Source: an uncultured Chloroflexia bacterium
GTDB lineage: Bacteria; Chloroflexota; Anaerolineae; Anaerolineales; UBA4823
Assembly: GCA_963827155.1 (NCBI GenBank)
Contig: CAWGZV010000002.1
Coordinates: forward strand, 3,287,237-3,351,236
Direction: 5' to 3'
DNA length: 64,000 nt
The notes under the pieces are model-generated. The model did no database searches, was not told the DNA's origin, and worked only from the letters and a program-made list of their open reading frames with translations. The position numbers and the translations under genes are program-made. Shown here piece by piece: positions 3,667 through 56,053 of this stretch (its first letter is position 1; each line of letters begins with the position of its first letter).

Positions 3667-4329
3667 TTTAGGCGGAACATAGGTTGAACCATCTGGCAAG
3701 ATCGCATCTGTCATCTTAGCGCCTTCCAGGTTGGTATCCTGCATCTCTGCCCCGGTTAAAATTGCTTCGCGCAAATCTGCCCCGCTTAAGTTGGCTGCGG
3801 TGAGGTCGGCTTTCGATAGATTGGCGCCTACAAGATTTGCGCCGCTCAGGTTGGTCTCGAACATATTCGCCATCGACAGATCTGCCCCGCTTAAATTTGC
3901 TCCAGAAAAGTTTGATTTGCTCAAGTCTGCTCTGGATAGGTTGCTGTTATTCAGATTCGCCCGGATCAGGGTGGCTTTGCTCACATTTGCCCGGCTCAGG
4001 TTTGCTTCCACAATCGTTGCATCTACCAGCTCCACCTTCCCGAGGTCGGCCCGAGTCAAGTTGCAGCGGGTTAGATTCGCCTCATTCATATTTGCTCGCT
4101 GAAGGTGGGCTTCGAATAGATTTGCCATGTTCATATCAGCCCGGCGTAGGTCAGCCCCCGCAAAGGTCGCCCAATTTAAGTCTGCGCGGCTGAAATTCGC
4201 CATCCCCAGCTTGCATTCGCTGAAGTCAACCCAATACAGGGATGCGCCGCTTAGATCAATCTTGACCAGGTAAAGCGGTCTCGGCCGGTTTAATAAATCA
4301 AGAATCTGGTATGGGTTAAGGGTCGTCAT
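3652..4329 (-). CDS. Pentapeptide-repeat protein (Qnr/MfpA-sized, 225 aa)
   Basis: Almost the whole ORF is A(D/N)LxX-type pentapeptide repeats (ANLSGADLSMANMFETNLSGANLVGANLSKADL...). Confidence 0.85.
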   Translation of the reverse strand: MTTLNPYQILDLLNRPRPLYLVKIDLSGASLYWVDFSECKLGMANFSRADLNWATFAGADLRRADMNMANLFEAHLQRANMNEANLTRCNLTRADLGKVELVDATIVEANLSRANVSKATLIRANLNNSNLSRADLSKSNFSGANLSGADLSMANMFETNLSGANLVGANLSKADLTAANLSGADLREAILTGAEMQDTNLEGAKMTDAILPDGSTYVPPKSDSG

Positions 4330-4368
4330 AAGTTTTCTCCCAGGGAATCAAAATAACTAACCTTGAGC

Positions 4369-5184
4369 TCAAACACACATCTCGCCGTGAGCGTCAGCCA
4401 AAGATTTACGCACCGCCTCACACCGCTCACAGTATGAACGATCGCACAGCAGCGCCAACGAATCTTCTCGAATCTTTCTTTCTGCTGCTACTACCAGGCC
4501 TTCCAGTGGAATTGCCTGAATTCGTCCAAGGCCCAGACGGACCTGGCAGGTGATCGCTTCCAGGCTTGGAGCGAGAGCCGGGAATCCATCCGAACATCCG
4601 GGGAACTTCGAACATTCGACCACACCATCGACAGTCAGCGCCCAGCGCACGAACTGCTTGCGCCCACTCAGACCTTCTGCATAATGAATGCTTGTATTCA
4701 CATCGTGGTCCACTCCCAGCAGCATCACCCAGCCGCGTTCCTCCAGCATCAGCCGGATCGGTTTTAGCGGCTCCTGGAGCGTCTGGCTATCCAAAATCGC
4801 ATCCGCTCCAATCCCAACAAAGGATAGGATCGGATGCACCGAGCGTCTCGCTCTTTCATGCCGGCGCATCGCCTCAGGAACAGCTCCCATTAATCGGTCG
4901 ACGCCCATCAGGGGGTCAAAAATCTGCGCCATCTGGTTCGCATCCCTGTGCTGCCCATAAGTCATCCCGTTATTCGCCGGACCGCACTCCGGGGTTACCA
5001 TCGTCTTATAGGTAAAGCTAGGCATTAAGACCTTTCCACAGCGGTCCACCAACGCCCGCACCAGCCCTTCGGCGCCTCCCTTCAGATAACCAAACGAGGA
5101 GAGGGATGCATGCGCGATGATTGGGACGCCTTTCGGGATCTCAAGCGTATTCAGAGCTGCCTGAAGCTCAGCGCTTTCGATCAT
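4369..5184 (-). CDS. AAC(3)/Antibiotic_NAT-family N-acetyltransferase-like protein
   Basis: Family-like pattern: IIAHASLSSFGYLKGGAEGLVRALVDRCGKVLMPSFTY and LLGVDHDVNTSIHYAE. The start ATG overlaps the upstream stop (ATGA). The substrate is not established. Confidence 0.6.
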   Translation of the reverse strand: MIESAELQAALNTLEIPKGVPIIAHASLSSFGYLKGGAEGLVRALVDRCGKVLMPSFTYKTMVTPECGPANNGMTYGQHRDANQMAQIFDPLMGVDRLMGAVPEAMRRHERARRSVHPILSFVGIGADAILDSQTLQEPLKPIRLMLEERGWVMLLGVDHDVNTSIHYAEGLSGRKQFVRWALTVDGVVECSKFPGCSDGFPALAPSLEAITCQVRLGLGRIQAIPLEGLVVAAERKIREDSLALLCDRSYCERCEAVRKSLADAHGEMCV

Positions 5185-5957
5185 TCACCTTTCCAGGTTG
5201 GTTTTCTCTTTTCAATGAAGGCTTTCATCCCTTCCTTTTGATCTTGCGTGTTAAAAAGCAAGTAGAAGGATCTTCGCTCGGCGGAGATCCCGTTGGAGAG
5301 AGGGGTCTCGAAGGCGTTGTTCACCGCTTCCTTTGCTAAGCGGAGCGCAATCGGCGCCCGATTCGCGATTTCATCAGCCAGGCTTAAGGCTGCCTCCAGG
5401 AATCGCTCAACCGGCACCACGCGGTTGACCAGCCCGTAATGAAGCGCCTCCTGCGCATCGATAGTTCGGTTATTCAACACCATTTCCATTGCGATCGCTT
5501 TGCCGACCGCCCTTGTCAGCCGCTGGGTGCCACCTGCGCCAGGAATTACCCCAATAGTGATCTCCGGTTGTCCAAACCGGGCGGTTTCGGAGGCAACAAT
5601 CATATCGCACGACAGCGCCAGCTCGTTCCCACCCCCAAGGCACCACCCTGAAACTGCCGCAATCACCGGTTTCCGGATTTTGCGAATGCGGTCAAATTGG
5701 GAGATTGTGTCCTCGGCCAGCATCTGGACGGTCGAAGATTCTGCCATCCCTTTGATGTCCGCTCCAGCTGCGAAAGCCTTTTCGTTCCCGGTGATCACCA
5801 TCGCCCCAACTTGGGCGTCCTCATCGAATTTCTCCAGCGCATCCATCAGTTCGATCACCAACGGATTGCTGAGCGCGTTCAAAACTTGCGGCCGATTAAG
5901 CGTCGCCAACCCCACCCGCCCCCTGACTTCAGCCAGAACCAGGTTCTCTGCGCCCAT
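5181..5957 (-). CDS. Enoyl-CoA hydratase/isomerase (crotonase) family protein
   Basis: Crotonase fold motifs: FAAGADIKGM, GWCLGGGNELALSCDMIVAS, ETARFGQPEITIGVIPGAGGTQRL. Confidence 0.85.
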   Translation of the reverse strand: MGAENLVLAEVRGRVGLATLNRPQVLNALSNPLVIELMDALEKFDEDAQVGAMVITGNEKAFAAGADIKGMAESSTVQMLAEDTISQFDRIRKIRKPVIAAVSGWCLGGGNELALSCDMIVASETARFGQPEITIGVIPGAGGTQRLTRAVGKAIAMEMVLNNRTIDAQEALHYGLVNRVVPVERFLEAALSLADEIANRAPIALRLAKEAVNNAFETPLSNGISAERRSFYLLFNTQDQKEGMKAFIEKRKPTWKGE

Positions 5958-48538: not shown

Positions 48539-51500
48539 ATGAGCAATCCGTTGAATTTTCAATCCATTATCTTGAAACTCCAAGATTTTTGGGCAAGCCG
48601 GGGCAGTCTTATCTGGCAGCCTTATTACGCTCAGGTTGGTGCAGGCACATACAACCCTGCCACGTTTCTGCGGGTCTTAGGCCCCGAACCATGGAACGTC
48701 GCCTATGTAGAGCCCTCCATCCGTCCGGACGATGGGCGATATGGTGAAAACCCAAATCGTATGCAAATGCATTATCAGTTCCAGGTCATTCTCAAGCCCG
48801 ATCCTGGCAACCCGCAGGAGATCTACCTCGAGTCACTCCAGGCGATCGGGATCGACCCTCTTCAGCATGACATCCGCTTCGTCGAAGATAACTGGGAATC
48901 GCCCGCCCTGGGTGCCTGGGGGCTTGGTTGGGAGGTGTGGTGCGATGGGCAAGAGATTACCCAATTCACCTATTTTCAGCAAGCCGGCGGAATCCAGCTT
49001 GATCCGGTCTCTGTCGAGATCACATATGGCTTGGAGCGGATCGCGATTGCGCTTCAGGGTGTAGAAGGTTTTCAGGATATTCAGTGGAATGAAACCCTTA
49101 CCGATGGAGACGTGAATCTGCAGGCTGAAGAAGAGCACAGCCGATATTATTTTGAAATTGCCGATGTCGTCCGCCTTCGCCAAATGTATGACCTCTACGA
49201 ACAAGAAGCACAAGCCTGTCTGGAGAAAGGTTTAGTACTGCCTGCCCATGATTATCTTCTAAAGTGCTCGCATACTTTCAATATACTGGATACTCGTGGA
49301 GCAGTGGGTGTCACCGAGCGTCAGGGTTTGTTCGCTCGGATGCGCGATGTGGCGAAAGGCGTCGCCCAGGCTTATTTGGATCAGCGCCAGCGACTTGAGT
49401 TTCCGCTCCTCGACAAGGCTCAGCTCTTGCATCCACAAATGGACGATGTTTCTCTAACCCCCCAGATTTCCCCTGGACCTATTACTGATCTCCCTGAGAA
49501 AGGTGCATTCTTGCTTGAAATTGGAGTCGAGGAGCTCCCTGCTGGCGATCTCGATTCTGCCCTTTATCAGCTTGGAGTCTCTGTTCCGGCTCTATTGGCA
49601 GAACTGCGGCTTGCATATCAGGTTCTGCAAGTGATGGGTACGCCCCGTCGTTTGGTGGTCGTAGTTGAAGAGCTTGCCTCTCGTCAGGCAGACCTGGAAC
49701 AGTGGATTAAGGGACCTCCTGCCGACAAAGCTTTTGCACCTGATGGCTCGCCGACCAAAGCAGTCGAGGGTTTCGCTCGCAGCAAAGGTATTTCAATTGC
49801 AGATTTGGAAATCCGTGAAGTTGAAGGTGGGCGGTATGTCGGTGCCCTGGTGCACCAATCAGGGAAATCGATAGTAGAAGTCTTTGCCGAGGCTCTCCCG
49901 AAGCTGATTGCCTCAATCCGCTTTGAAAAGCCTATGCGCTGGAACCCGAGCAATGTCCTTTTCTCGCGGCCGATTCGTTGGCTGGTGGCGATCTTCTCTC
50001 ACGGTGAAGACTGTACAATAATCCCTTTTGAATTCGCCGGTTTGCTTTCCGGATGTGTGACCAAGGGGCTGCGTTTTAGAATGCCTTTGGAATATTGCGT
50101 TCATTCGCCTCTTGAATATTTCGATTTTCTATCATCTCAAGGCATCGTGCTGGACTCAAACTCCAGGCAGGCTACGGTGAGAGAACAAGTTGCCGCGCTT
50201 GCAAACTCTGCTGGGGGAGTGGTATCCAACGATCCAGAGCTGTTTGCGGAAGTGACAAATTTGGTCGAAGCGCCAACAGCTCTGCTCGGCTCGTTCAATC
50301 CCGACTACCTCAAGCTTCCGCCTGAAGTACTCATCTCGGTTATGAAAAAGCACCAGCGCTATTTCCCGGTGCTTTCTGGTAAGAAAGTTTCTGCCGAGGA
50401 AGTGCCGCTGCCTTGTTTCATCGCCGTCAGAAATGGCGACAATGAAGGTCTAGATACTGTAGTGGAAGGGAATCAACATGTGATTCGCGCCAGGTTTGCG
50501 GATGCGAATTTCTTCGTGCGTGAAGATCTTAAGAAACCGCTTGAAGACTACCTCCCACGCCTGTCCACGCTTACTTTTCAAGCGCGGTTGGGGACTATGA
50601 GAGACAAGGTCACTCGGATCCAGGCTCTGGTTGAAGACCTGAGTCAACAAGTTGGGCTGGATAATGACCAGCTTCGCACGGCACGCCGCGCTGCGCTGCT
50701 CTCTAAAGCCGATCTGGGCACAAGGATGGTAGTTGAGATGACATCCTTACAAGGTCAGATTGGCCGTTACTATGCGCTGCGCTCAGGCGAAATGAGGGAA
50801 GTCGCCCAGGCGATATTAGATCATTATTTGCCCCGGCATGCAGGCGACCAGCTGCCCGCCAGCCGTCCGGGTCTTGTAATCGGTCTGGCCGATCGCCTGG
50901 ATACACTCGCCGGGTTGTTTTCTGCTGGATTAATCCCTTCAGGCAATAAAGATCCATTCGCCTTGAGGCGCCATGCCCTCGGTCTCGTCCAAATCCTGGT
51001 CTCGTGGGATATCGATTTTAATATCGATGAAGGACTGTGTCTGGCTGCCTCGCATCTTCCTATCTCTAGCAGCACCGAAATACTATCTGCCTGCTCGAAC
51101 TTTGTGGTAGAGCGCTTTCGAAATATCCTGTTGGATCAGGGACGTCGCTATGATATTGTCGATGCTGTCCTGGCGGTTCAGGGCCATAATCCGGCGGCAG
51201 CATCACGGGGGGTTGCACAGCTTCAGATATGGACCTCCCGCCCGGATTGGCACCGGATCTTGCCAGCTTATGCCCGTTGTGTGCGCATTACCCGGGATCT
51301 TGAGGAGCAATTTGAAATTGAAAGCAGCCTATTTGCAGAGCAAGCCGAGCGTGATCTCTACCATGATTTGGTCCAGGCTGAGCAGCTAAATCCATCATCT
51401 GCTTCTGTGGATCAATTTCTTAACACTTTTCTGCCCATAATTCCAGCGATTGATCGTTTTTTTGAGCAGGTGCTGGTAATGTCCGAAGACCACCAGATGC

Positions 51501-51583
51501 GTCAAAACCGCCTGGGTTTGCTGCAGCGGATTGCATTATTGGCAGAAAGGGTTGCTGACCTCTCTCGTCTCGAAGGTTTTTAG
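48539..51583 (+). CDS. glyQS: Glycine--tRNA ligase, fused alpha and beta subunits
   Basis: The N-terminal ~290 aa is GlyQ ([33 protein letters not shown]). The remainder is GlyS-like. Single 1014-aa ORF. Confidence 0.9.
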
Positions 51584-51608: not shown

Positions 51609-51640
51609 GTGCTGCACATATATGTGCAGCACTCTTTATT
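51609..51640 (+). terminator. Rho-independent terminator of glyQS
   Basis: Perfect 24-bp palindrome GTGCTGCACATA|TATGTGCAGCAC (51609-51632) followed by TCTTTATT. Confidence 0.7.
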
Positions 51641-51737: not shown

Positions 51738-51766
51738 TTGACTTATGCTAAAAAGCATGTTATTTT
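51738..51766 (+). promoter_or_regulatory. Sigma-70-like promoter with an inverted repeat in the spacer, upstream of the small-peptide gene
   Basis: TTGACT (51738-51743), a 17-nt spacer containing ATGCT-aaaa-AGCAT, then TATTTT (51761-51766). Confidence 0.5.
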
Positions 51767-51864
51767 ATTGAAAATTACCTAACAATTCTGCAAGGTAACC
51801 TTTCAAGAATGTAAGGTGATTATATCAGAAAAATTTAGGGAATAAAAAACACAGGAGGCATAAA

Positions 51865-52074
51865 ATGTCGTTAGCAAAAGTGGTATACCAATTATCAACC
51901 GACAACGATTTTGCATCACAATGGAAAGTTGACCCAGAAGGCACTTTAGCCAAACAGGGCTTGCGCCTGACGAATGAAGAGTTGGCTTTCCTCAAAAAGG
52001 GTTTGAAGCGCCGCACCGCCGATCAGGTACGACTGTCTGACCTGCTCTACAAGGCTCGGGATTGGGGCGTCTAG
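51865..52074 (+). CDS. 69-aa candidate RiPP/pheromone precursor (NHLP/Nif11-like leader pattern; ComX-like C-terminus ...RDWGV)
   Basis: AGGAGG lies 6 nt upstream of the ATG. The N-terminus LSTDNDFASQWKVDPEGTLAKQGLRLTNEELAFL fits the D..F......DP...L...G..L...E....L leader pattern. There is a basic stretch KKGLKRR and the C-terminus is LLYKARDWGV. Confidence 0.6.
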   Translation: MSLAKVVYQLSTDNDFASQWKVDPEGTLAKQGLRLTNEELAFLKKGLKRRTADQVRLSDLLYKARDWGV

Positions 52075-52170: not shown

Positions 52171-53130
52171 ATGCTTCATGTTTTAAATTTGCAGCAGAAC
52201 GAAGCAGAAAAATTACCCTGGCTGCGCCTACCGGGTATGTGCTGTCAGGCACTCGGAGGGGATCCGCATCAGGCGGATCCGGTCGCGGCTGCCTGGATCC
52301 TGTTCAACAAAGCAGCCCACATTATGGATAGCGTCGAAGATCGCGATGAGCTGAATTCTTGGTCTATCGAATCTCTTCCCGAAGCCCACACAAATTCAGA
52401 TGCAAAGACTGCTACCGGCTACAAGAATAGCAGTGCCACGGGCGCAACCTATGCCACCGCTATAAGCGCTGCAACTGGTTTGTATTTCACAGCCAACTTG
52501 ATCCTGCATGACCTTGATGCCAGGCTTGCTTACCCGGCAGCGGCCCAACAGATCAGGGCTGAGTTCCTGAGCCGTTTTTTGGTGATGTGCTGCGGTCAAC
52601 ATTTGGATTTGATCCAGCCGAATCCAACGATTGAACAATACTATAAGATTGCTTCCGCCAAATCAGGGGAATTCTTTGCGGTTGCCTGTTGGGCTGGGGG
52701 GCGTCTGGCATCGGACCAATTTGAGGTGCTGGCTGGACTGCGCCAGTTCGGCCTTCAAATCGGGTTGATTATCCAGATGCTGGACGATTTGAAAGACCTG
52801 CGAGAGTTGAGGATCATCCCAATCGCCAACCGTGCTGCCAGGCTTCTTCGCTCCCTCCCGGTCATCTATGTCTTGGATGTCTTGCCAGAGAGTGAAAAAA
52901 ATCGTCTTATCTCGTTGTTCATAGAACCTCAACTTACATCAGAGCATGAAATTGAGATCCATGAGCTTATCGAAGGCAAAGGGGGAACGCTCTACCTGCT
53001 TGCCGAATTGGAAGGAAGCCGCCAGATGGCTGAAGATGGTCTGGCGCAGGCGGGTATTAAAAATCCTCATATCAGCCCTCTGCATGCGCTTCTTAATCAG
53101 CTTTGCAGCCTTGACCCAAATGGGGGTTAA
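52171..53130 (+). CDS. Divergent polyprenyl-synthase-fold protein (ComQ-like candidate peptide prenyltransferase)
   Basis: Family landmarks are present: AAHIMDSVEDRD (degenerate first Asp-rich motif), CGQHLDL, KIASAKSGEFF and IIQMLDDLKD (intact DDxxD). It lacks GKRxRP, the RRG after motif 1 and the GK..D..K.T segment after motif 2. Confidence 0.75.
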   Translation: MLHVLNLQQNEAEKLPWLRLPGMCCQALGGDPHQADPVAAAWILFNKAAHIMDSVEDRDELNSWSIESLPEAHTNSDAKTATGYKNSSATGATYATAISAATGLYFTANLILHDLDARLAYPAAAQQIRAEFLSRFLVMCCGQHLDLIQPNPTIEQYYKIASAKSGEFFAVACWAGGRLASDQFEVLAGLRQFGLQIGLIIQMLDDLKDLRELRIIPIANRAARLLRSLPVIYVLDVLPESEKNRLISLFIEPQLTSEHEIEIHELIEGKGGTLYLLAELEGSRQMAEDGLAQAGIKNPHISPLHALLNQLCSLDPNGG

Positions 53131-53203: not shown

Positions 53204-56053
53204 ATGGAAACAGCGCGTGTGACACGCTCCAACACGCTCCTGCGCTGGGTGGCATTTCTGCCGCTCATTTATGCTGTCTTGGTGTTCGCTTTTATCCTTG
53301 GCACAACAGTAAAACTCATTTCCTTCCCAGATGATGGCATCGATAGTGTAAATTCGTCCGGCGAGGTTCAGTCGCTCGCCCCAGCTGGCCCAGCTTTCGG
53401 AAAGCTTCAAGAAGGAGATATTATCATTTCTGTGGAAGGGGTCCCCTTCAGCAGCGGCGCTACAAATTACAGCGCCCTTGATAAAAAGGGTGGTTCTGAA
53501 GTGGAGTTTAAGGTCTTGCGCCAGGGAATATTGACGACAGTCACTGTTCGCCTGGATGCACCATCCCGCGACCTGGTCATGAGCCGGATGGCGGCTATCC
53601 TGATTGCGCTAATGTTTTTGCTGACCGGTATAGGCATCGACGCATTTAAACCATCCGGCTCTGGCAACATGATCTATTCAATCTGGTTCTACACCTGCGC
53701 CCTTACTTTGACTGCAGGTGCGGCATCGACCATGCGGATTGGTTTTTCTACTGCGTTATTTTACATCTGTCTCTGGATGATTGGGGCGGTCTCGGTTCAC
53801 TTCCATATGCATTTTCCCCAGCTGATCCGCTGGCGCCTGAAATATGTATTTCTCTCGATCCTTTATTTCATCAGTTTCTTAGGGATTGCGCCCCTCATCA
53901 TTTTTGGAACTGTCAAGTTTAGGGCTTTCAGCTGGTACCCACAGTTTTTAGGGGCGAGCCAGATCGTCTTATCCATCAGCCTCTTTTTCGTAGTGGCTTT
54001 GTTGATTTTTAGCTATCGGAGCGCAGATACACCTGGCGTGCGCGGAAAAATCCGGCTGGTTTTATTAGGCGGCATTCTGGTGGTTATGCCGTTTATCAGC
54101 CTCACGATCCTTCCGACAGCATTGTTGGACCAGCCGCTGATCCCATATTCAATTGCCTTCCTCTTGCTTGGGCTTCTCCCGCTTACCTATGCATATGCTA
54201 TTTTTCGCCTCCATCTGATCGAGATCGACCAAAAAGTCAACCGCGGTGCGACCTTGATCCTGGTCTATTCGATCCTCGGAGGATTTTACCTGGTGCTTTA
54301 TGCGCTGCTTAACCGTTACCTTCCCACCAGCTTTCGCACCATCCCACTGATCAATACCTTCCTGGTGCTGGTGCTCGCCACCATTTTCATCCCTCTTCAT
54401 CGCTGGGTTCAGCGTATGGTGGACCGCATTTTTTATGGGGGTTGGTACGATTATCGCATCGGCGTTCGTCAAATCACCGAGAACATCTCGCAATTGACAG
54501 ATTTGCAGAGCCTTGCCCAAACGGTAAGCGAGCGGCTTAAAAATACGCTCAGGCTCGAGGAGGCTGTCGTTTTCTTCCGGGATCAGAATGGCGACTTTGC
54601 AGTGGTCGAGGCTTCATTTAGTGGAGGAATTAAAGAACACGAGCGCCGGGAATTCCCGGTCCTGCCGCGCTCCAGCCTAACTTATCTCCTAAAAATCGGC
54701 GCGGCCGAACGTACTGCTCTGCTTCAATCGCTCAGTCAGATAACCCTCACCCCCGAAGAAGTCCAACTTCTCAAAACCGAACAGATCCACCTTTGGGTGC
54801 CCGTGATTGGTCATCAGCAAATTCAGGGCTTGCTTGCCTTGGGACCAAAGATCGGAGGAGACGTATTTAGCGGCGAGGACCTAGACATCCTGCGCGTGGT
54901 CGTTCAGCAACTGAGCCCGATTATCGAAAACATTCATCTGCTTACCGACCTTAAACAGCACGCCTCCGAATTGGAAAAACGGGTTGAGGAGCGTACCGCC
55001 GAGCTCTATGATGCGAAAGAGCGAGTGGAAGCAATCCTGGCAAGCGTAGGAGATGGAGTAGTCGTAACCGACCTCGAGGGCCAGATCTTGACAGTCAATC
55101 TGGCTTTCGAGAGGCTCTCTGGCTTCTCGTCTGTTGAGATACGCGGACAAAATCTTTTCGATATCTTGTCCTCTGAAAACGGCGTTGCGCGCATTTCTGC
55201 AATGAGGGATACTCTTCTGAATGGAGATATTTGGAGTGATGAGCTGGTTGGGCGGCGCATTGATAACAGCCAATACAATATCCAGTTCACCATAGCCCCT
55301 ATTCACGATCGCCAGGGTCAGCCAGTCGGTTATGTTGGAAGCCAAACAGATATCAGCCGTCAAAAAGAGCTCGATAAAATGAAGGATGCCTTTATTTCAG
55401 ATGTCTCTCATGAGCTTCGCACTCCAATTACCAACATCAGCCTTTATATTGAACTCTTGAAATCTGCACCGGTTGATCGTCACTCTCGCTACCTTGAAAT
55501 CGTTAAGGAACAGAGTTCGCTCCTAACCAAATTGGTTGAAGATATCCTGGACCTCTCGCGGCTTACTGCATCGAAGACCAGACCTGCTGTTTTTTCACCC
55601 ATCCAGCTGAATAAACTCGCCGAACAGGTCGTTACAGCTTATTTGCCGCTAGCCGAGGCTTCAGGGGTAAATCTGGTCTTCCAACCCGATCCCGATCTAC
55701 CGGTCGTCCAAGTCGAACAAAATCAAATCGCCCGCCTGATCACGAACCTGGTAACGAATGCGGTCCGTTACTCGCCCAAGGGGCAGGTCTTCGTCAGTAC
55801 TACCCAGGATCTGGGATGGGTTTCTATAAAAGTTGAAGACACCGGGATTGGCATCGACCCGCACGATATTCCGCACATCTTTGAGCGGTTTTTCCGCGGA
55901 AGCAATGTGCGCCAATCGGAAATGCACGGCACCGGACTTGGATTGGCAATCGTCAAGGAGATCGTCGATTTCCATGGAGGCACCATCGAAGTCAACAGCG
56001 TTCCGGGGGTCGGTTCTTGCTTCCAGGCCTGGCTCCCCATGACCCAGTTATAA
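53204..56053 (+). CDS. Multi-TM sensor histidine kinase (TM, PDZ-like, ~9 TM, GAF, PAS, HisKA, HATPase_c)
   Basis: PDZ-like GPAFGKLQEGDIIISVEGVPF...VEFKVLRQG, then a long polytopic region. After that come a GAF-like and a PAS segment (VGDGVVVTDLEGQILTVNLAFERLSGF), the H-box SHELRTPIT and the G-box GTGLGLAIV. Confidence 0.9.
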   Translation: METARVTRSNTLLRWVAFLPLIYAVLVFAFILGTTVKLISFPDDGIDSVNSSGEVQSLAPAGPAFGKLQEGDIIISVEGVPFSSGATNYSALDKKGGSEVEFKVLRQGILTTVTVRLDAPSRDLVMSRMAAILIALMFLLTGIGIDAFKPSGSGNMIYSIWFYTCALTLTAGAASTMRIGFSTALFYICLWMIGAVSVHFHMHFPQLIRWRLKYVFLSILYFISFLGIAPLIIFGTVKFRAFSWYPQFLGASQIVLSISLFFVVALLIFSYRSADTPGVRGKIRLVLLGGILVVMPFISLTILPTALLDQPLIPYSIAFLLLGLLPLTYAYAIFRLHLIEIDQKVNRGATLILVYSILGGFYLVLYALLNRYLPTSFRTIPLINTFLVLVLATIFIPLHRWVQRMVDRIFYGGWYDYRIGVRQITENISQLTDLQSLAQTVSERLKNTLRLEEAVVFFRDQNGDFAVVEASFSGGIKEHERREFPVLPRSSLTYLLKIGAAERTALLQSLSQITLTPEEVQLLKTEQIHLWVPVIGHQQIQGLLALGPKIGGDVFSGEDLDILRVVVQQLSPIIENIHLLTDLKQHASELEKRVEERTAELYDAKERVEAILASVGDGVVVTDLEGQILTVNLAFERLSGFSSVEIRGQNLFDILSSENGVARISAMRDTLLNGDIWSDELVGRRIDNSQYNIQFTIAPIHDRQGQPVGYVGSQTDISRQKELDKMKDAFISDVSHELRTPITNISLYIELLKSAPVDRHSRYLEIVKEQSSLLTKLVEDILDLSRLTASKTRPAVFSPIQLNKLAEQVVTAYLPLAEASGVNLVFQPDPDLPVVQVEQNQIARLITNLVTNAVRYSPKGQVFVSTTQDLGWVSIKVEDTGIGIDPHDIPHIFERFFRGSNVRQSEMHGTGLGLAIVKEIVDFHGGTIEVNSVPGVGSCFQAWLPMTQL

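Follow-up and report, generated by a model that had tools for sequence, protein, structure and literature searches.

A small peptide gene with an NHLP-type leader, a ComQ-like enzyme and a ComP-like kinase form a candidate prenyl-tryptophan signalling cassette in Anaerolineae

In the ComQXPA system of Bacillus subtilis, the prenyltransferase ComQ, the pheromone ComX, the kinase ComP and the regulator ComA act together, and ComQ-type prenylation of tryptophan was for many years regarded as limited to Bacillus, a view that PalQ (2023) and StheQ (2026 preprint) have widened. The PalPXQ system of Paenibacillus alvei comprises a histidine kinase, the NHLP-type peptide PalX and PalQ, which prenylates Trp; the PalX leader aids prenylation but is not strictly needed, and the PalX core has about 8 residues (PMC10853753, 2023). 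StheQ of Sphaerobacter thermophilus farnesylates W68, second from the end of the 69-residue StheX (bioRxiv 10.64898/2026.08.29.745113). Here we describe a locus in a stretch of 64,000 nucleotides, referred to below as the window, from an uncultured Chloroflexia bacterium assigned to the Anaerolineales (contig CAWGZV010000002.1, positions 3,287,237 to 3,351,236). A small gene, X, is followed there on the same strand by Q, which encodes an enzyme resembling trans-isoprenyl diphosphate synthases (IPPSs), and by a gene for a ComP-like sensor histidine kinase (HK). We suggest, with a probability of roughly 60%, that X is the ribosomal precursor of a prenylated Trp signalling peptide that is modified by Q and sensed by HK. 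The kind of system is already known from ComQXPA, PalPXQ and StheQ/X; the Anaerolineae family is large and architecturally distinct, and no description of an X-Q-HK cassette in Anaerolineae was found in the literature searched. The cassette consists of these parts:

51853..51858, + strand: Shine-Dalgarno sequence AGGAGG, 6 nt 5' of the X ATG; GGAG-type sites are aligned in relatives
51865..52074 (stop included), + strand: X, 69-aa precursor peptide gene, from homologues, conservation and purifying selection
51865..52008, + strand: leader of X, residues 1-48, four-helix domain of the NHLP clan, from NF038399, PDB 6LK7 and an AlphaFold 2 (AF2) model
52009..52044, + strand: linker and semi-conserved V-x-L-[SA]-[DE]-hydrophobic segment of X, residues 49-60, from conservation
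52045..52071, + strand: tail LYKARDWGV (residues 61-69), hypervariable and putatively the core, with the W67 codon at 52063-52065
52171..53130, + strand: Q, 319 aa, trans-IPPS-like (ComQ/PalQ/StheQ-like) putative Trp prenyltransferase, PF00348 E 6e-12
52327..52347, + strand: first Asp-rich motif of Q, D53-S-V-E-D57-R-D59, with D53 and D57 invariant and aligned to DDIMD of the Pyrococcus horikoshii geranylgeranyl diphosphate synthase (GGPPS)
52774..52797, + strand: Q202-M-L-D205-D206-L-K-D209, Gln and second Asp-rich motif of Q, from the invariance of Q202, D205 and D206
53204..56053, + strand: HK, 949 aa, ComP-like sensor histidine kinase following Q, from Pfam domains
53321..53569, + strand: extracytoplasmic PDZ domain, HK residues 40-122, between transmembrane (TM) helices TM1 and TM2, from PF13180 and PDB profile matches
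53570..54403, + strand: polytopic membrane bundle of HK, about 9 TM helices (10 with TM1), from hydropathy
54500..56050, + strand: cytoplasmic GAF (residues 433-571), PAS (606-718), HisKA (727-789) and HATPase_c (839-947) domains of HK, from Pfam

That X is a real, conserved gene is virtually certain. Its open reading frame (ORF) starts with ATG at 51865, stops with TAG at 52072-52074 and encodes 69 residues. A first search gave 20 protein clusters with 65-100% identity, and a profile search gave 431 peptide clusters at 90% identity; X is present in all 19 related reference genomes, and homologues were also found in 80 metagenome loci. Relative to its two nearest relatives, all 14 nucleotide differences in X are synonymous, and in the closest pair X has a dN of 0 at a dS of 0.22, while Q has a dN/dS of 0.29. 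For distant relatives pS is saturated (0.7-1.0), with a pN of 0.11-0.36 for leader codons and 0.13-0.60 for tail codons. X is coding and under purifying selection. A preliminary description of this DNA, made from the letters alone, had proposed the small ORF with AGGAGG 6 nt before its ATG, and both are confirmed (51865-52074 and 51853-51858), as are the peptide segments it quoted and W67, and X contains no Cys; it had also named purifying selection at codon level and homologues beside the enzyme in relatives as checks, and both were found.

The linkage of X, Q and HK is strict. The 19 Q loci of the reference genomes all belong to Anaerolineales or other Chloroflexota metagenome-assembled genomes; X lies directly upstream of Q in every one (19/19), and the same HK lies downstream of Q in all those with enough DNA. 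Among the 80 metagenome loci, Q follows X in 58 of the 59 that could be scored, and HK follows Q in 38 of 39. The cassette occupies at least four flanking contexts. In the clade of the window the synteny glyQS - X-Q-HK - dnaG - rpoD is conserved, and in the second context pyruvate:ferredoxin oxidoreductase and a metallo-beta-lactamase-fold gene flank the cassette at one end and an amidase gene at the opposite end; the third context includes a molybdo-enzyme and an aldo-keto reductase, and the fourth gcvT.

Leader residues 1-48 are nearly invariant across the family. The model NF038399 matched the X peptide of the window with an E-value of 1.4e-8 and 34.7 bits (cutoff 40), and TIGR04509 scored 14.4 bits (cutoff 34); of 26 family members, all were matched by NF038399, 11 by TIGR04509 and three by TIGR03793. 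The X of the window reaches none of the curated cutoffs of the named NHLP-clan families, and as it falls below those of NF038399 and TIGR04509, the X leader belongs to the NHLP clan as a separate subfamily. Searched against the PDB, the X family profile found Os1348 (6LK7, E 1.2e-5) and gave weak matches to an NHLP chimera and to the nitrile hydratase alpha chain. The AF2 model of X has helices at residues 4-12, 14-22, 24-31 and 37-48, with a predicted local distance difference test (pLDDT) score of about 80; the linker and tail are of low confidence, with pLDDT below 50 at residues 49-53. Where a leader of the NHLP/Nif11 clan had been claimed, the NHLP half is thus upheld by NF038399 and 6LK7, but no Nif11 leader model matched either the X of the window or the 26 family members. 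Pfam Frankia_peptide was also considered as the family of X and rejected, the match being weak. The closest leader-domain family is that of Os1348 (NF038399; PDB 6LK7) from Pseudomonas sp. Os17 (PMC7726476), which differs in that Os1348 has 85 aa, adjoins a GNAT acetyltransferase rather than a prenyltransferase and has no reported Trp rule, and in that X scores under the family cutoff.

The last 8-10 residues of X are hypervariable save for one invariant Trp. In 119 of the 120 X clusters listed, this Trp is followed by 0-2 residues to the C-terminus, and the same 120 clusters hold 92 distinct tails when the last 8 residues are compared. In the metagenome loci, all 85 complete X ORFs have one or two residues after Trp; Trp is the very last residue in one of the 120 clusters and in none of the 85 ORFs. 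It is third from the end in the X of the window, whereas the commonest position in the family is second from the end. The second Trp of X, W20 in the leader, is not invariant. A conserved leader with a variable tail, as in ComX pherotypes, had been put forward as something to look for, and the alignments show it; Trp had been named as the candidate for modification, and W67 is in fact the only invariant residue of the tail, next to a trans-IPPS-like enzyme which, by the published motif layout of PalQ and StheQ, is of the Trp-prenylating kind. X is likely to be the substrate of Q at this Trp. The boundary between leader and core has to be moved, however. The KKGLKRR stretch that had been suggested as a possible processing region is present, but V55-x-L57-[SA]-[DE] is still conserved beyond it, and the boundary probably lies later; what follows KKGLKRR, described as a core of 20 residues, has 19, of which only about the last 8-10 are hypervariable. 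Residues 49-60 may possibly serve as a recognition or cleavage region.

Two further precursor arrangements bear on the fate of the tail. Loci L069, L070, L071 and L073 encode X precursors of 98 aa (e.g., L071:5917-6294) with the same leader and three repeated cores in the pattern ...TTAG[LM]SWYQ / AKGD.TDG[LM]SWYQ / AKGD.TDG[LM]SWYQ, where AKGD linkers lie between cores that end in SWYQ. Elsewhere, tandem arrays of 2-4 X copies precede a single Q (L044:2870-3905, L043:5980-6711, L055, L063 and L013:2361-2818), and tails within an array are identical or one residue apart (e.g., ...ISRGWM vs ...ISRGWK). The repeated SWYQ cores suggest that short units are cut out, each with its end two residues beyond Trp, and the multi-core and tandem forms of X together point to a processed short peptide. 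No mention of ComX-type precursors with several cores was found in the literature searched.

The Q protein has an IPPS fold with altered motifs. Its PF00348 match is above the Pfam cutoff, whereas all NCBIfam synthase models score at most 57 bits against cutoffs of 275-600. The AF2 model of Q is all-alpha (pLDDT 84), with a template-modelling score of about 0.7 to IPPS structures and to the indole prenyltransferase Ord1, which is also the best PDB match of the Q family profile (E 4e-18, identity about 19-20%). Invariant in the family are D53-x3-D57-x-D59 and Q202-x2-D205-D206-x2-D209, and at the first motif the family consensus reads DSVEDxDEPDPWW, with no second D and no RRG. Chain-elongating trans-IPPSs carry GGKRxR, DDxx(xx)D...RRG and, after DDxxD, GK...D...K.T, motifs for binding isopentenyl diphosphate (IPP) and for catalysis. 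GGKRxR, RRG after the first Asp-rich motif (FARM) and GK...K.T after the second (SARM) are absent from the Q family consensus, and a pairwise alignment with GGPPS 1WY0 agrees; since the IPP-binding motifs are missing, Q is unlikely to be a chain-elongating synthase.

In the spacing of these motifs, Q matches PalQ and StheQ. When compared by published residues, PalQ has the same spacing in its FARM, D-x3-D (D89/D93), and in Q-x2-D-x3-D (Q197, D200, D204) (PMC10853753), and D85/D89/D91 of StheQ have the D-x3-D-x-D spacing seen in Q (bioRxiv 10.64898/2026.08.29.745113). In StheQ, with Q212, N215, D216 and D219, a Gln stands one helical turn before the second motif, as it does in Q; N215-D216 form the pseudo-SARM of StheQ, N215 is implicated in Trp positioning, and the equivalents here are D205-D206. 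Ord1 (PDB 9V4G/9V4J, PMC12510300), likewise all-alpha, has the same fold as Q, and the Q-x2-D pair corresponds to Ord1 Q216/D219; Ord1 acts on free Trp, whereas a peptide is proposed for Q. Several Q homologues have been named ComQ by JGI. Clustered at 50% identity, the enzyme family falls into at least 430 groups. Q retains just 35-47% identity in comparisons in which the flanking GlyQS and DnaG retain 66-71%. The Q of the window contains a low-complexity insertion of about 32 residues (EAHTNSDAKTATGYKNSSATGATY...) at 52357-52434 (residues 63-88), with pLDDT below 50, which was otherwise seen only in an 88%-identical relative, P0022.

The third component, HK, has a counterpart in ComP, for which AlphaFold predicts ten TM helices, with TM1 and TM2 separated by an extracellular PDZ-like domain that is proposed to bind ComX (PMC9620489). 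The same TM1-PDZ-9TM layout is found in HK (the ComP side being that of PMC9620489), which adds GAF, PAS and a HisKA (PF00512) dimerisation domain. PF13180 was found in 11 of 12 HK homologues, the HK profile matches the PDZ domains of DegP, DegS and RseP (best E 1.6e-9), and among the folded parts of the kinase PDZ varies most. The stretch 'DDGI' was considered for the carboxylate-binding loop of the PDZ domain, but a tentative alignment to DegS would place the loop away from it. The membrane bundle matched no sensor or peptidase family in Pfam, NCBIfam or the PDB. Invariant SVHFH..FPQ, I-E340, N346-R-G and FYGGWYDYR (410-418) occur in the bundle region at 53570-54460 (residues ~123-418); such polar motifs might possibly take part in ligand binding or catalysis.

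In many relatives a response regulator gene lies next to the kinase. A regulator of the REC+HD_5 (HD-GYP) type is encoded directly 3' of HK at L019:9801-10820, L023:9791-10816 and L025:9850-10824, and a regulator follows HK in further loci (L039, L054, L058, L069-L071, L090, L102 and L104). Overall, a regulator gene follows HK in 9 of the 17 metagenome loci that could be scored, and the seven tested by Pfam were all REC+HD-GYP. A comparable output is that of RpfC/RpfG in diffusible signal factor (DSF) signalling of Xanthomonas, in which a cell-cell signal acts through a kinase on a REC+HD-GYP phosphodiesterase of cyclic di-GMP (c-di-GMP). That system differs in that DSF is a fatty acid, not a peptide, and RpfC is a hybrid kinase. 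The RpfG-type REC+HD-GYP regulator is the type that follows HK in about half of the relatives; the clade of the window has no adjacent regulator. The sole response regulator in the window, an OmpR/PhoB-type (REC+Trans_reg_C) gene at 1479-2192, was considered as a partner of HK and rejected, as it lies 50 kb away and nothing links the two.

How the parts of the cassette diverge was compared in 30 complete cassettes. The mean pairwise distance is 0.77 for the tail, 0.62 for PDZ, 0.56 for Q, 0.48 for the TM bundle, 0.39 for the kinase and 0.35 for the leader. This pattern of divergence in tail, Q and PDZ resembles the comQXP polymorphism of Bacillus. The hypervariable tails, together with the fast-evolving Q and PDZ, suggest that the tails are strain-specific pherotypes.

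Set beside the three described systems, the cassette has features of each. With ComQXPA it shares neighbouring genes of the same strand for a small precursor with a near-C-terminal Trp, for a trans-IPPS-like enzyme and for a polytopic kinase, and also the hypervariable tail and the polymorphic enzyme and sensor. It differs in gene order (Q-X-P-A in ComQXPA, X-Q-P here), in phylum (Bacillota vs Chloroflexota) and in having no NarL-type ComA, the regulator being REC+HD-GYP or absent. PalPXQ has the same three components, and X is upstream of Q in both, whereas the Pal order is P-X-Q; searches with the PalX core pattern DNVRRFFW gave no match in metagenomes, and tblastn of plasmids gave nothing relevant. 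StheX, like X, has 69 aa, an ordered N-terminal domain, a disordered tail of about 10 residues and a subterminal Trp, and comes from the Chloroflexota. StheQ/StheX belong to the Thermomicrobia rather than the Anaerolineae, stheX lies downstream of stheQ whereas X lies upstream of Q, and no kinase is mentioned in bioRxiv 10.64898/2026.08.29.745113.

We propose the following course of events, in which the prenylation itself, the length of the prenyl chain, the cleavage and export of the peptide and its recognition by HK are inferred. The NHLP-type helical leader (about residues 1-48) would dock X onto Q, a homodimer-type enzyme of the trans-IPPS fold. Q, which has no IPP-binding motifs for elongation, would ionise a prenyl diphosphate by means of its first Asp-rich motif (D53/D57) and Mg2+, with C10-C15 as the most likely donor, and would alkylate the indole of the subterminal W67; as in ComX, PalX and StheX, the prenyl group would probably go to C3, the ring closing to form a pyrroloindoline. 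Some protease would then free a short lipopeptide made up of about the final 8-10 residues (…YKARDW*GV, the asterisk marking the prenylated residue), which would exit the cell and be sensed by the ComP-like HK, the extracytoplasmic PDZ and the membrane bundle being the likely binding site. That a secreted signal derived from X is sensed by HK has, in our estimate, a somewhat better than even chance. In about half of the scorable relatives, HK would signal to the REC+HD-GYP regulator, which is of the c-di-GMP phosphodiesterase type; in the clade of the window, the partner regulator of HK would be encoded elsewhere.

Several observations weigh against this proposal. No Gly-Gly or Gly-Ala cleavage motif was found before the X tail, the lack of Gly-Gly having been noted in the preliminary description; nor was a protease or exporter gene found conserved beside the cassette. 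Whereas ComQ and StheQ have a pseudo-second Asp-rich motif, NDxx(x), Q has the canonical DDxxD (D205-D206). In PalX the Trp is the C-terminal residue and PalQ does not accept peptides extended beyond it, whereas X nearly always has one or two residues after Trp. The X family profile gave no alignment with ComX of B. subtilis 168, and the HK N-terminus showed no significant similarity to ComP, both comparisons being provisional. Coevolution of the parts is weak: in partial Mantel tests, tail and Q given the kinase yielded r 0.18 (p 0.02), and tail and PDZ given the kinase r 0.09 (p 0.13). In the clade of the window no response regulator adjoins HK, which is followed by dnaG, and no HD-GYP regulator was found within the 64-kb window.

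Of the other explanations, the one that fares best is that X yields a prenylated natural product of the class of peptides that ribosomes make and that are modified after translation (RiPPs), such as a membrane-active antimicrobial or a surfactant-like lipopeptide, with HK regulating its production or sensing something else. Peptides that carry a prenylated Trp can act on membranes (review PMC13290415), and Os1348, the founder of the NHLP clan, has been linked to antibiotic activity (PMC7726476). Several cores in one precursor and precursor genes in tandem are typical RiPP features, and the cassette has no DNA-binding regulator. We nevertheless consider such a product unlikely: no immunity, transporter or extra tailoring genes are conserved with the cassette, the only constant partners of X are Q and a receptor-type kinase, the extracytoplasmic PDZ sensor is hypervariable along with the tail, and the cassette lies, flanked by glyQS and dnaG-rpoD, in the core genome.

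Still less probable is that X is prenylated and left uncleaved, so that the full-length protein, anchored in the membrane by its lipidated C-terminus, assists HK in cis as an accessory protein or co-sensor. Such a role would fit a leader that is an ordered four-helix domain and very strongly conserved, the stable folded dimer formed by Os1348, and a cassette with neither a linked protease or exporter nor a signal peptide or GG motif in X. The threefold cores with their AKGD linkers, however, have no rationale unless short units are cut out; moreover, ComX and PalX are cleaved to peptides of 6-10 residues (PMC10853753), and the PDZ sensor is extracytoplasmic. That Q is an ordinary polyprenyl diphosphate synthase for quinone or carotenoid supply, with X an unrelated small protein or the small subunit of a heteromeric synthase, is very improbable: although PF00348 is matched above its cutoff, the DDxxD of the second motif is retained and sources often label Q homologues 'geranylgeranyl pyrophosphate synthase', the NCBIfam synthase models stay far below their cutoffs, the IPP-binding motifs are missing, Q has diverged well beyond GlyQS and DnaG, and its gene is strictly linked with that of an NHLP peptide whose Trp is invariant.

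Returning to the prenylated signal, its fullest form would be a phylum-specific and widespread quorum sensing of Anaerolineae by prenyl-Trp lipopeptides, with pherotype tails and a PDZ/10-TM kinase acting on an HD-GYP c-di-GMP phosphodiesterase. We offer this complete form only tentatively, at well under even odds. The locus shows a complete cassette of precursor, enzyme and ComP-like receptor as a large and diversified family in Anaerolineae, in which natural tails come in hundreds of variants, some precursors have several cores and many members have an HD-GYP output. If the proposal is true, the cassette would give a testable handle on cell-cell communication in the filamentous Chloroflexota of digesters and sediments, and would constitute a circuit from peptide pheromone to c-di-GMP that possibly governs filament, biofilm or granule behaviour in abundant, hard-to-culture bacteria. 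The multi-core precursors would then represent a new way to amplify ComX-type signals, and the enzymes of the family, paired with their substrates, would form a natural library for prenylating a Trp that is subterminal instead of terminal, of use in peptide lipidation. It would also supply a counterpart of ComP whose PDZ domain is recognisable from sequence, for studying the proposed recognition of pheromone by PDZ.

Upstream of X lie two elements that may control its expression:

51738..51766, + strand: promoter-like TTGACT-N17-(TG)TTATTTT, 5' of X, found by scan; predicted function
51779..51815, + strand: two tandem operator-like inverted repeats CTWACA-N4-TGYAAG, just 3' of the -10

The promoter-like element had been noted earlier as TTGACT-17-TATTTT, and it is present, with TG ahead of its -10. 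The match alone is at chance level (5 sites found vs 5.1 expected), but TTGAC[AT]-N17-TG-n-TATnTT is conserved upstream of X in seven loci (including L007, L001, L004, L014, L016 and L021). The repeat at 51779-51794 is exact and that at 51800-51815 has one mismatch, with a spacing of 21 nt, and allowing up to one mismatch, the two copies are the sole matches to CTWACA-N4-TGYAAG in the window. Of the first 25 loci, 16 carry exact copies; these sit just 5' of X wherever they were checked against X coordinates, and they are kept near X although their distance to the ATG differs between loci. The left half is CTTACA throughout and the right half either TGCAAG or TGTAAG, which favours a candidate protein operator at 51779-51815 over an RNA hairpin. 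Farther upstream, a strong hairpin followed by a T-run lies at 51609-51632, after the glyQS stop, and X therefore appears to start a new transcription unit. A terminator or attenuator between X and Q was considered and rejected, as the fold there is no better than that of shuffled sequences (z 0.23).

Among the neighbouring genes, the one at 48539-51583 of the window encodes a fused glycyl-tRNA synthetase of 1014 aa that combines the alpha and beta subunits (Pfam matches on homologues in L001-L005). In two different contexts, a metallo-beta-lactamase-fold gene lies 5' of X on the opposite strand (L025:4398-5345(-) and L011:3013-3945(-)), and L023 has a similarly placed ORF at 4316-5290(-).

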